A stretch of DNA of 32,000 nt from an uncultured archaeon (GTDB taxonomy: Archaea > Asgardarchaeota > Thorarchaeia > Thorarchaeales > Thorarchaeaceae), in the NCBI GenBank assembly GCA_964648855.1, contig CAZYLT010000011.1, positions 60,001-92,000 on the forward strand. Reading direction: 5' to 3'. Position numbers and translations under genes: made by a program. Under the pieces are notes generated by a model. The model did no database searches. It was given only the letters and a program-made list of their open reading frames with translations, and was not told where the DNA came from. How positions within the stretch are numbered: position 1 is the first letter of the stretch; each line of letters starts with the position of its first letter. Positions 2,832 to 4,947 of this stretch are shown here, in pieces.

Positions 2832-3569
2832 CTATTCATTGGCGAAGATAATCTCGCGTATACGTCTGTGAAGATTTATGTAATCTTCTTGACCAACCGA
2901 ATGTATTTCAATAAGAAATTCGAACAAATCAAGCAGGTCTTTGTCGGCTAAATCGCCTCTAATCATATTTGCGACTTCTTTCCGTGGTTGCATCTCTAAC
3001 TTGTATTTCTTAAGCAGCAGCTCCACTAGTTCTTGTTGATGCTCCTGACTCAAACTCACATCAAACTTCTTTATGAGTTTCTGGACATATTCTTTGCTTT
3101 TCTTTTTGAGCACCTTTTCATCGGCGTCAAGCATTCCTGTTGTGAGCACGAACCCCTTAGCTGTCCTCTGATAGTAATCCGTAGTTCGTTTCCCTGTTGT
3201 GACCGTGCCATACTTGATTACGTAGTCGGCATCAATGAGTTTAGGGAGGTGGTGATAGACTTGATTCTTGGTTATTTCTTCCGCTCCCTCCACCTTCGTT
3301 GACTGTTTCACGATTTCAACCACGGACAAAGCATGTCGCTGGACTTCACGTTGGCGGATGATTAAATCCCCCGTCTTCTCATCCCGTTTCTCTGTCGTGA
3401 CAGTGTCAGGCATTCCCTCCCTCAGTACTCTAAGAATTGAAAGCCTTGCGCTATCATCCAGCTCAGCAGCTCTCTCCGGATCCTTTATGAAAACGATCTC
3501 TTCCTGAGGTTTCTTCCCCTCTTCCGTTAATTCGATACCTTCTAGGCTATCTGGAATGTCTGCGTTCAA
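2832..3569 (-). CDS. Winged-helix (ArsR-like) transcriptional regulator with helical C-terminal domain
   Basis: LDDSARLSILRVL...LSVVEIV...TKNQVYHHLPKLIDADYV...YYQRTA is an ArsR/HTH_20 pattern with an insertion. Start placed at TTG 3569 after GGAAGGA (ORF track start 3605). Confidence 0.8.
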   Translation of the reverse strand: MNADIPDSLEGIELTEEGKKPQEEIVFIKDPERAAELDDSARLSILRVLREGMPDTVTTEKRDEKTGDLIIRQREVQRHALSVVEIVKQSTKVEGAEEITKNQVYHHLPKLIDADYVIKYGTVTTGKRTTDYYQRTAKGFVLTTGMLDADEKVLKKKSKEYVQKLIKKFDVSLSQEHQQELVELLLKKYKLEMQPRKEVANMIRGDLADKDLLDLFEFLIEIHSVGQEDYINLHRRIREIIFANE

Positions 3570-3702
3570 TGTCCTTCCGTCCACTTCTACTGCAGCTAGG
3601 CACAATTTTCTAGCACTTAAGTATAGAAAACACGGATTATAAGGTTAACGATTGAATTACAAACGTACATTATGTTATTTTGTTGTGACACAAATAGTTT
3701 TG

Positions 3703-3720
3703 TGTATAAAGGTTTATACA
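3703..3720. promoter_or_regulatory. Perfect palindrome TGTATAAA-GG-TTTATACA, candidate operator
   Basis: 8-bp inverted repeat with 2-bp spacer, between the divergent wHTH gene and the peptide ORFs; TATA-like TTTATAT at 3738-3744. Confidence 0.6.
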
Positions 3721-3777
3721 ACAAACCATGCGTAATATTTATATGTGTTTGGCACACTATAAAGTACGTGAACAAAA

Positions 3778-3885
3778 ATGGCTGAAGCAAAGAATGCAAC
3801 CAAAATGAGTCATCTGAAAACCAGGCCAATGGGCAACGTGCAAAACACTGAAGCTCTTGGTTATGCATACCAATATCGGAGGTAA
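3778..3885 (+). CDS. Small peptide 1 (35 aa, MAEAKNATKMSHLKTRPMGNVQNTEALGYAYQYRR)
   Basis: ATG preceded by GTGA and by a TATA box ~35-40 nt upstream; homologous to the next ORF at both ends. Confidence 0.6.
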   Translation: MAEAKNATKMSHLKTRPMGNVQNTEALGYAYQYRR

Positions 3886-3890
3886 ACTAC

Positions 3891-3971
3891 ATGGCTATTG
3901 CTAAAGACAAAAAGAATGAGAGAAAACACATCTCCACCAATGCAATCCTTTACTCTTACTTCAGAAGGTAG
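3891..3971 (+). CDS. Small peptide 2 (26 aa, MAIAKDKKNERKHISTNAILYSYFRR)
   Basis: GGAGGT RBS 7 nt before the ATG, overlapping the end of peptide 1; shares MAxAK and TxAxxYxY..RR with peptide 1. Confidence 0.65.
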   Translation: MAIAKDKKNERKHISTNAILYSYFRR

Positions 3972-4073
3972 TTCGTAATGGTATCCCCATATCAATCAAA
4001 TCGACCGGAAGACAGAGATAACGATTGTCACTCAGTAGACCCCAATAGAGGGCGTGACCTCTCATGCAAAGAA

Positions 4074-4101
4074 GTGCTCATGCTCGAAGCGACATGAGCA
4101 C
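4074..4101. terminator. Hairpin GTGCTCATG-N10-CATGAGCAC followed by a pyrimidine tract
   Basis: 9-bp perfect stem, then CTTCTCTTTTC; lies between the convergent peptide ORFs and the methyltransferase. Confidence 0.5.
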
Positions 4102-4137
4102 AGGCTTCTCTTTTCAAACCTTACTTTAACATACTAT

Positions 4138-4947
4138 CTACTTCTTGAAGACAATTCGATAGAACGTATCATTCATGATATAGTCTACTTCAACATCCCG
4201 TGCCTTGCCTGGAAGGTGCTCAAGTGGAGGTCTAGTATCGAAAAGAGCGTTTTCTTCAATAATGGCTCTTCCCCTAGATTCATTTCTGATCTTCGGTGAT
4301 ATCCCCTCGTCAATTACAACAACAGTCCCTTCATTTACTGTAACTCTAAGCATTTCCTGTAGGGCGTCTTCCTTTTCAGAAAATGTATTCAGTCCACCTG
4401 TATGTACTACAGTATCGAAGTAGTCACTCCGAAACGGGATCTTGAATACGTTTCCCTTTACAAGATTGACATTCAAGCCGACTTGTTTGAGCTTTGACCT
4501 AGCAACCTCTAGCATCCCGTCTGAAACGTCCAACCCGTGCATCGATAGTTTGGATACTTTATCTTTCATAGCATTTCGAAGCGCGATGAAATTGGCGCCT
4601 GTACCGATACTAACATCGAGGATATTGATTTGACCTGTGTTTGGCAAAAACTGAACAAGGTCTTCTCGTTCTTTCATCATGTCAACCTGCAGCCAGCCGT
4701 CATAGCTTTGTACCGCTTCATCATACTTACTTGCCACGTTATCGTATTCAGCAACCCATTTTCTATCCTTATCCTTCAGGGGGGGATACAACAAATCAAC
4801 AATCGAATTTTCAATACTCCAGTAGTGCCCCTTTTCGCACGTTACTCCTCCTGTAACAATGGACTCGTTCTGCTCCAATATCTCAGTAAGATGCATCTTT
4901 CTGCTGCATTTTGGACAACGTAAGGCATCTAAATCCTCAATTTTCAG
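4138..4947 (-). CDS. Class I SAM methyltransferase (UbiE-like) with N-terminal Trm112-like Zn ribbon
   Basis: ILDVSIGTG, GLDVS, FDTVV motifs. The frame stays open upstream of ATG 4896 and adds LKIEDLDALRCPKCSRK, which pairs with CEKGH; probable CTG start at 4947. Confidence 0.8.
   Translation of the reverse strand: MKIEDLDALRCPKCSRKMHLTEILEQNESIVTGGVTCEKGHYWSIENSIVDLLYPPLKDKDRKWVAEYDNVASKYDEAVQSYDGWLQVDMMKEREDLVQFLPNTGQINILDVSIGTGANFIALRNAMKDKVSKLSMHGLDVSDGMLEVARSKLKQVGLNVNLVKGNVFKIPFRSDYFDTVVHTGGLNTFSEKEDALQEMLRVTVNEGTVVVIDEGISPKIRNESRGRAIIEENALFDTRPPLEHLPGKARDVEVDYIMNDTFYRIVFKK

Follow-up and report, generated by a model that had tools for sequence, protein, structure and literature searches.

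Tandem micropeptide genes of Thorarchaeota form a multi-copy family with two types of promoter

Introduction

The small-protein modulators AcrZ (acting on AcrB), SgrT (acting on PtsG) and MgtS are mostly encoded in single copy and are often transmembrane. Short peptides are also made from tandem genes: psm-alpha and aureocin A70 are short operons of tandem paralogous leaderless peptides of 20–35 amino acids, with a link to a transporter. The alpha/beta-type SASPs of endospore formers come from dispersed multi-copy small genes with one promoter type and strong terminators. In Rgg/SHP and ComR/ComS, a peptide-sensing regulator is encoded beside a short gene for a peptide with an aromatic C terminus, and operators lie between the two.

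Here we describe a family of tandem micropeptides in Thorarchaeota that resembles each of these systems in part; a literature search returned no description of it. Like AcrZ, SgrT and MgtS, its members are shorter than 50 amino acids, are co-regulated with a membrane protein that they may tune and carry a short conserved element that could serve for docking. They differ in being soluble and basic and in having tandem paralogous genes, spread over several operons of each genome, and they show no sequence match to these modulators. They are tandem, paralogous, leaderless and cationic, as are the products of psm-alpha and aureocin A70, but have no full-length amphipathic helix, ABC exporter or immunity gene, and their operon is conserved throughout the lineage and includes an acidic third peptide. 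The genomic layout matches that of SASP genes in its dispersed multi-copy small genes, single promoter type and strong terminators, whereas the peptides are not homologous to SASPs, are half as long, are made from polycistronic operons and have no known sporulation context. As in Rgg/SHP and ComR/ComS, a gene for a short peptide with an aromatic C terminus adjoins a regulator gene with which it shares operators (43 of 54 loci); unlike in those systems, that regulator is an ArsR/PH1932-like winged-helix protein without a TPR domain, and three of the four operons in the genome are unlinked to it and have another operator.

For the regulatory circuit, the nearest parallel is the BacR–BacE/BacF bactofilin switch of Bacillus subtilis, in which BacR is a small DNA-binding protein (DUF4004) and for which an envelope-stress context has been suggested (PMC13649987). 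The parallel is one of analogy and carries no weight as evidence: here too, a small DNA-binding protein is linked to a bactofilin-type gene that it is predicted to activate. The Asgard candidate is HTH_45/Sso10a-like rather than DUF4004, and the Bacillus circuit involves neither micropeptides nor MFS transporters. We found no published description of a shared Asgard regulon of bactofilin-like protein, MFS pumps and microproteins.

Results

A three-gene operon of micropeptides

The preliminary description of the window, by which we mean the whole 32,000-nucleotide stretch of DNA analysed, reported a tandem pair of homologous short open reading frames (ORFs) 5 nt apart, each with an element resembling a ribosome-binding site. 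Both ORFs (A1 and A2) and both elements (GTGA and GGAGGT) are present and real, but the unit was incomplete: a third ORF, B, coupled through its own Shine–Dalgarno (SD) sequence, had been missed.

3778..3885, + strand: A1, a basic type-A micropeptide of 35 amino acids with the C-terminal motif S/T-T-x-A-h-x-Y-A-Y-x-Y-R; AF2 helix at residues 24–33
3891..3971, + strand: A2, a type-A micropeptide of 26 amino acids, paralogue of A1
3978..4097, + strand: B, an acidic/neutral type-B micropeptide of 39 amino acids ending L-T-x-x-E-V-L-x-W/L-E-A-T
3768..3771, + strand: SD-like GTGA of A1; predicted very short leader; same position in relatives
3878..3883, + strand: SD of A2, GGAGGT, overlapping the Arg-Arg-stop codons of A1
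3966..3969, + strand: SD of B; overlaps the final Arg codon of A2 and its stop
4074..4114, + strand: hairpin over the stop of B with a T-rich tract behind it; probably a terminator or a 3' stabiliser

A1, A2 and B form a three-gene operon in which A1 and A2 are the first two cistrons; 5 nt separate A1 from A2, and B begins 6 nt past A2. The operon is flanked by a divergent winged-helix gene (257 amino acids, 2832-3605, − strand) on one side and a convergent class I methyltransferase gene (4138-4896, − strand) on the other. The methyltransferase has an N-terminal Cys/His knuckle, lies in convergent orientation to the operon in about 40 loci and carries neither of the operators described below. 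There are four type-A loci in the source genome: the window copy and three dispersed copies (on C2, C19 and C5).

Spread of the family and selection on the peptides

Taken on its own, the pair A1 and A2 is only marginally alike (Smith–Waterman score 25, shuffle p 0.033), and it is the relatives that prove the homology proposed earlier. A type-A profile matched 83 of the 86 genomes of the Thorarchaeota family, with about 556 matches in total and several copies in each, and none of 191 genomes spanning 27 other Asgard families. The type-B profile matched 65 of the 86. Next to orthologues of the window regulator, small ORFs occupy the same divergent position in 20 of 22 loci, as had been anticipated for relatives. 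The commonest layout among 116 distinct operons is A-A-B (74). In some of the operons linked to the regulator, an additional and more divergent peptide, A0, comes first (L008:1206-1292, L022:1095-1202); the window operon does not have it.

Over 210 copies, the type-A motif reads S-T-x-A-[ILV]-x-[YHF]-[AS]-Y-x-Y-R. Its Ala occurs in all 210, a count that is partly invariant by construction because this residue anchors the alignment; it is also the sole invariant column in an unbiased alignment. His or Phe often replaces the Tyr at +3. A motif expression in the preliminary description picked out only these two ORFs in a six-frame search of the genome, but in its strict form it fits just 42 of the 210 members. 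Codon entropy across the motif is 1.03, 0.73 and 1.66 bits at codon positions 1, 2 and 3, and all four Ala codons and all four Thr codons are used. The ratio dN/dS is 0.19–0.21 in the type-A motif and 0.36 in the basic middle; for type B it is 0.21 in the motif and 0.49 in the variable part. The type-A middle varies in both length and sequence, and selection is focused on about 11–12 C-terminal residues. On these substitution patterns A1 and A2 are under purifying selection as peptides, and the earlier argument from codon differences to selection on the peptide holds, given the third-position entropy and the low motif dN/dS.

Neither type matched an entry in Pfam, NCBIfam, PDB, Atlas or Rfam, and the family is thus as unrecognised as first reported. 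A scan of 1.84 billion protein representatives gave 47 matches, all of them family members save one repeat protein. No significant homology was detected between A and B. We conclude that this is a peptide family without a known relative, for which a mode of action of a known kind is likeliest.

Two of the dispersed copies, L031/L153 (C2:39108-39200 and C19:15983-16075), share about 100 nt of identical sequence across the promoter and first codons while their peptides have diverged, which points to recent duplication or gene conversion of these unlinked copies. The third, L154 (C5:159806-160151), has a divergent type-A peptide with a GTG start, followed by a 67-amino-acid ORF and then an MFS gene, and is under operator II.

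Translational coupling and a 3' hairpin

Each ORF's stop overlaps the SD of the next, and at most junctions the start follows 4–9 nt later, usually at a distance of 5–7 nt. This bears on the conserved 'RR' C terminus of the preliminary description. Where another type-A ORF comes next, the terminal Arg codon is AGG in 89 of 91 cases, and since this codon overlaps the next SD, the second R is mostly a by-product of the SD. Arg at +8 has mixed codons and 199 of the 210 peptides have Arg as their last residue, which indicates some residual selection on Arg, and the earlier claim survives in part.

The hairpin over the stop of B has a mean z of −4.5, with z<−2 in 98% of 87 copies; 83% of its bases are paired, compared with 23–46% in slid controls, and compensatory pairs are present. 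The remaining operon transcript is not unusually structured (whole-transcript fold z −1.5). We read the window operon as a putative short polycistronic mRNA with a terminator, for which a length of 330–350 nt between about 3765 and 4115 is predicted, and its expression is predicted from the promoter, SD coupling, terminator and dN/dS.

A2 and B share a frame across the TAG in 54 of 68 cases (window 3969-3980 and homologues), and alternative-code gene callers therefore fuse them: the 69–90-amino-acid 'A+B fusions' in the protein scan come from gene calling in which TAG was translated as Gln. An AF2 model of one such fusion showed two separate helices (pTM 0.31). Pyrrolysine or amber read-through is unsupported, as the genome gave no TIGR02367 (PylRS) match over the cut-off and no CTA tRNA among the 17 tRNAs detected. 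We attribute the in-frame TAG to descent and SD spacing.

Properties of the type-A peptides

Type-A peptides have a net charge of about +5, are polar and are not amphipathic along their length. They show no signal or transmembrane stretch (best 11-residue Kyte–Doolittle window, 95th percentile 1.44), and AF2 confines their helix to the C-terminal stretch, at a pLDDT of about 80. The conserved residues are Ala, Thr, Ile and Tyr; Lys and Arg are not conserved by position. Complex prediction with the type-A alignment and the alignment of the bactofilin-like protein described below scored 0.00, a result that we counted neither for nor against binding. Resemblances to histone alpha-3, to a bactofilin rung and to a regulator helix that might be mimicked were unsupported by HHalign or PDB search. 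An HbYX tail, as in proteasome activators, was also rejected: the C-terminal hydrophobic-Tyr-X occurs in 29 of the 210 peptides and in neither window peptide.

Operator I and the divergent regulator

The intergenic region between the operon and the divergent gene contains the following features.

2832..3605, − strand: ArsR-like (PH1932-like) winged-helix regulator, candidate repressor of the window operon and of itself
3650..3664, no strand: second class I operator, one mismatch, beside the TATA-like box of the regulator gene
3681-3695 and 3697-3711: weaker class I sites
3712..3726, no strand: class I operator GTTTG-N5-CAAAC, one mismatch
3738..3743, + strand: TATA-like box of the peptide operon

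The regulator matches PadR/HTH_20/ArsR-type models weakly and also PH1932, with a PH1932-like C-terminal domain; no TPR-like domain was found, and it is not of the ligand-sensing RRNPP/TPR type. In regulator-linked operons, GTTTG-N5-CAAAC palindromes abut the TATA box and often also lie near the start, and the regulator promoter carries them too. Promoters split sharply: operator I is present in 43 of 54 regulator-linked operons and operator II in 0 of 54, with operator II in 55 of 60 operons not linked to the regulator. In archaea, sites on the BRE imply repression. At both promoters the palindromes overlie or adjoin the BRE/TATA, from which we infer repression by the divergent winged-helix protein. 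The BRE position in archaeal promoters was taken from PMC6316755. For both operator classes, it is linkage that suggests which regulator pairs with which operator. In one relative (G009), class I operators also precede a 3-hydroxyacyl-CoA dehydrogenase-like gene and occupy one further intergenic position (L209, L203); the window regulator may therefore control a few additional genes.

Operator II and a regulon of bactofilin-like and MFS genes

The dispersed operons share GTCACA-N3-TGTGAC and, with it, a pair of direct repeats; these elements lie immediately upstream of a weak BRE and TATA, an activator-type layout. Four strong intergenic sites of this kind occur in the source genome, at three peptide operons and a bactofilin-like gene. 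The window copy has no operator II; the C2, C19 and C5 copies do, and they are unlinked to the window regulator. The bactofilin-like gene (L152:5015-6253, on C1) encodes a glycine-rich protein of 413 amino acids that matches PF04519 above the cut-off. Usually adjacent to it is a very conserved HTH_45/Sso10a-like gene (L152:4606-4905, C1:229614-229904; 100 amino acids). Operator II upstream of the bactofilin-like gene is kept in 28 of 28 loci with intact upstream DNA, usually right behind the HTH_45/Sso10a-like gene. This candidate activator is single-copy and has a similar family range.

In Thorarchaeota, a co-oriented MFS gene lies 3' of 13 of 27 operons without B and of none of 87 with B, a contrast that reflects perhaps two or three events because related genomes are not independent and relatedness inflates the statistic. 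These MFS genes belong to two subfamilies, and four of the gaps are −4 to +5 nt; as background, MFS-sized membrane ORFs make up 45 of 2,545 ORFs.

Operator II, the bactofilin-like gene and the HTH_45/Sso10a-like regulator recur together in other Asgard families; the large family f9 had the gene pair and promoter motif in 0 of 15, and the motif is absent from viral contigs. In family f12 the motif occurs in 19 of 19 genomes (control 0), where it fronts the bactofilin-like gene, an MFS gene of a Thorarchaeota subfamily and one to three copies of a 29–30-amino-acid peptide (L271:1591-1680, L270:1349-1438 and relatives). This peptide is basic and has an aromatic tip and an invariant Phe-x-Cys-Arg; its genes have a triple operator II promoter upstream and a GC hairpin with a T tract downstream. 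In family f5 (Heimdallarchaeia; includes Heimdallarchaeota AB_125) the motif fronts MFS genes and Lys-rich peptides of 32–40 amino acids with hydrophobic tips, one of which is annotated only as hypothetical (OLS32538.1).

L322:1573-1674, L327:1574-1669, L328:1352-1453, L343:1574-1693 and L324:1192-1452: f5 peptides, including a longer relative of 87 amino acids

HHalign detected no homology between the f12 or f5 peptides and type A (probability <1%); an ungapped profile test of type A against the peptides of other lineages gave weak C-terminal matches. A long peptidase-like ORF also stands behind the motif in f5 (L326, L334, L346).

Discussion

The window is best explained as carrying a single copy of an operon whose three cistrons are translated into small proteins that are mostly disordered. 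Our preferred reading, held tentatively, is that type-A peptides work inside the cell as effector microproteins, docking through their C-terminal helix on a partner in the operator II regulon. On this view the divergent winged-helix protein would repress the window copy, whereas a small Sso10a/HTH_45-type protein would bind the repeats upstream of the weak BRE and so switch on the dispersed copies along with the bactofilin-like gene and MFS transporters, probably in an envelope-stress or cell-state response. The type-A peptides most likely remain cytoplasmic. Their C-terminal 12 residues are predicted to form a short helix with the invariant Ala, an A-x-x-x-A small face and Ile/Tyr flanks, and this helix would dock on and tune a protein of the same regulon, for which our first candidate is the co-transcribed MFS transporter and our second the bactofilin-like scaffold or its regulator. 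Added affinity for membranes or acidic surfaces may come from the basic tail. B, acidic and helical, could serve as a partner or counter-peptide, and its gene also bears the terminator. Because the helix has a small-residue face with Ile/Tyr flanks, protein docking fits better than a nucleic-acid-binding patch; the many copies and tandem paralogues suggest a need for high dosage or an abundant target, and the window copy brings these effectors under an additional, local regulator, so their synthesis can respond to either of two signals. Of the four functions proposed in the preliminary description, short-linear-motif ligand is thus the best reading, with signalling peptide as a rival. Counting against docking, the A-A-B operons (74 of 116), the window included, end in the hairpin without a transporter; the operator II peptides of other families are non-homologous, so a shared target is itself conjectural; and the transporter-modulating small proteins AcrZ and MgtS are mostly hydrophobic single-pass peptides. 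Co-regulation with a putative target is seen in the paralogous operons, through operator II and MFS coupling, and not in the window copy.

The peptides might instead be leaderless signals or antagonists, secreted by the coupled MFS in the manner of psm-alpha or aureocin A70 products and possibly sensed by the divergent regulator, as happens in Rgg/SHP. Several features would suit such a role: tandem paralogous cationic peptides of 26–36 amino acids, the MFS coupling of B-less operons, and a regulator whose C-terminal domain is PH1932-like and whose operators occupy both promoters. We nevertheless consider export rather unlikely, given peptides that are polar and not amphipathic along their length, a near-universal presence in the family (83 of 86) where bacteriocins are patchy, no conserved immunity gene, protease or ABC exporter beside the 116 operons and a regulator outside the ligand-sensing RRNPP/TPR type. 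We give a similarly low probability to abundant protectants that bind nucleic acids or ribosomes during dormancy or stress, much as SASPs or hibernation factors do. The charge of about +5, the Tyr/Arg-rich tip, the stable 3' hairpin and several dispersed, homogenised copies under one promoter (with the C2/C19 identity of about 100 nt) speak for this role; yet the basic residues are not conserved by position, the invariant residue is Ala, no SASP, histone or ribosomal family was matched and the MFS coupling is left unexplained.

Three further explanations carry much less weight. It is very unlikely that the ORFs are ribosome-arrest or attenuator leader peptides governing a downstream gene, a role proposed earlier for this locus. 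The C-terminal conservation and Arg-rich ends of type A do resemble arrest motifs, and 13 B-less operons run on into MFS, some of them translationally coupled, but the next gene is convergent in the window and on the opposite strand in 50 of 53 regulator-linked loci, the hairpin ends B-containing operons with no conserved gene downstream, and SD overlap explains the terminal Arg. The other early proposal, a RiPP precursor whose YxY core is cross-linked in trans (cittilin/biarylitide-like), can draw on the basic N-terminal part, the Y-x-Y-x-Y tip and the class I methyltransferase adjoining in about 40 loci. It nonetheless seems highly improbable: the genome (94.6% complete) has no P450 (PF00067), the 116 operons have no conserved radical-SAM, YcaO or protease neighbour or other modifying enzyme, the operator II regulon contains no enzyme, and the methyltransferase is convergent and has an operator in 0 of 35 loci. 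Conservation moreover falls at the C terminus and the 'leader' is variable, whereas most RiPPs show the opposite pattern, and Tyr +3 is often His or Phe. Least credible of all is an untranslated locus, a non-coding RNA or repeated DNA element with incidental ORFs. The B C terminus does overlap the conserved hairpin and the entire cassette is duplicated around the genome, but third-position-biased variation, a dN/dS of about 0.2, open frames behind SD-bearing stops, the lack of an Rfam match and the lack of a stable whole-transcript fold (z −1.5) argue against it.

Nearly every Thorarchaeota genome has several copies of these genes, most of them uncalled or unnamed, which points to a probably abundant class of proteins that has been overlooked. 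Promoter analysis yields two candidate regulator–operator pairs and a regulon common to several Asgard families, and as all components are small and can be synthesised or expressed, the question of the partner is approachable without culture. Beyond intracellular docking lies a bolder idea, which we judge distinctly unlikely: that an old Asgard regulon of HTH_45-type activator, bactofilin-like solenoid and MFS pumps recruited its own multi-copy basic microproteins of 30–40 amino acids in at least three lineages, including Heimdallarchaeia, with hydrophobic tips that act directly on the bactofilin-like filament or its switch. If so, relatives of eukaryotes would have a hidden peptide layer of cytoskeletal control, and in the window copy those effectors would have come to answer a second signal.

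A separate observation concerns the neighbourhood of the window regulator. Positions 1957-2337 encode a profilin (PF00235), in tandem with a gene at 2423-2794 that is alike in size and has no Pfam match. We saw no link between the peptides and these tandem genes, which are syntenic with the window regulator in about 24 loci.
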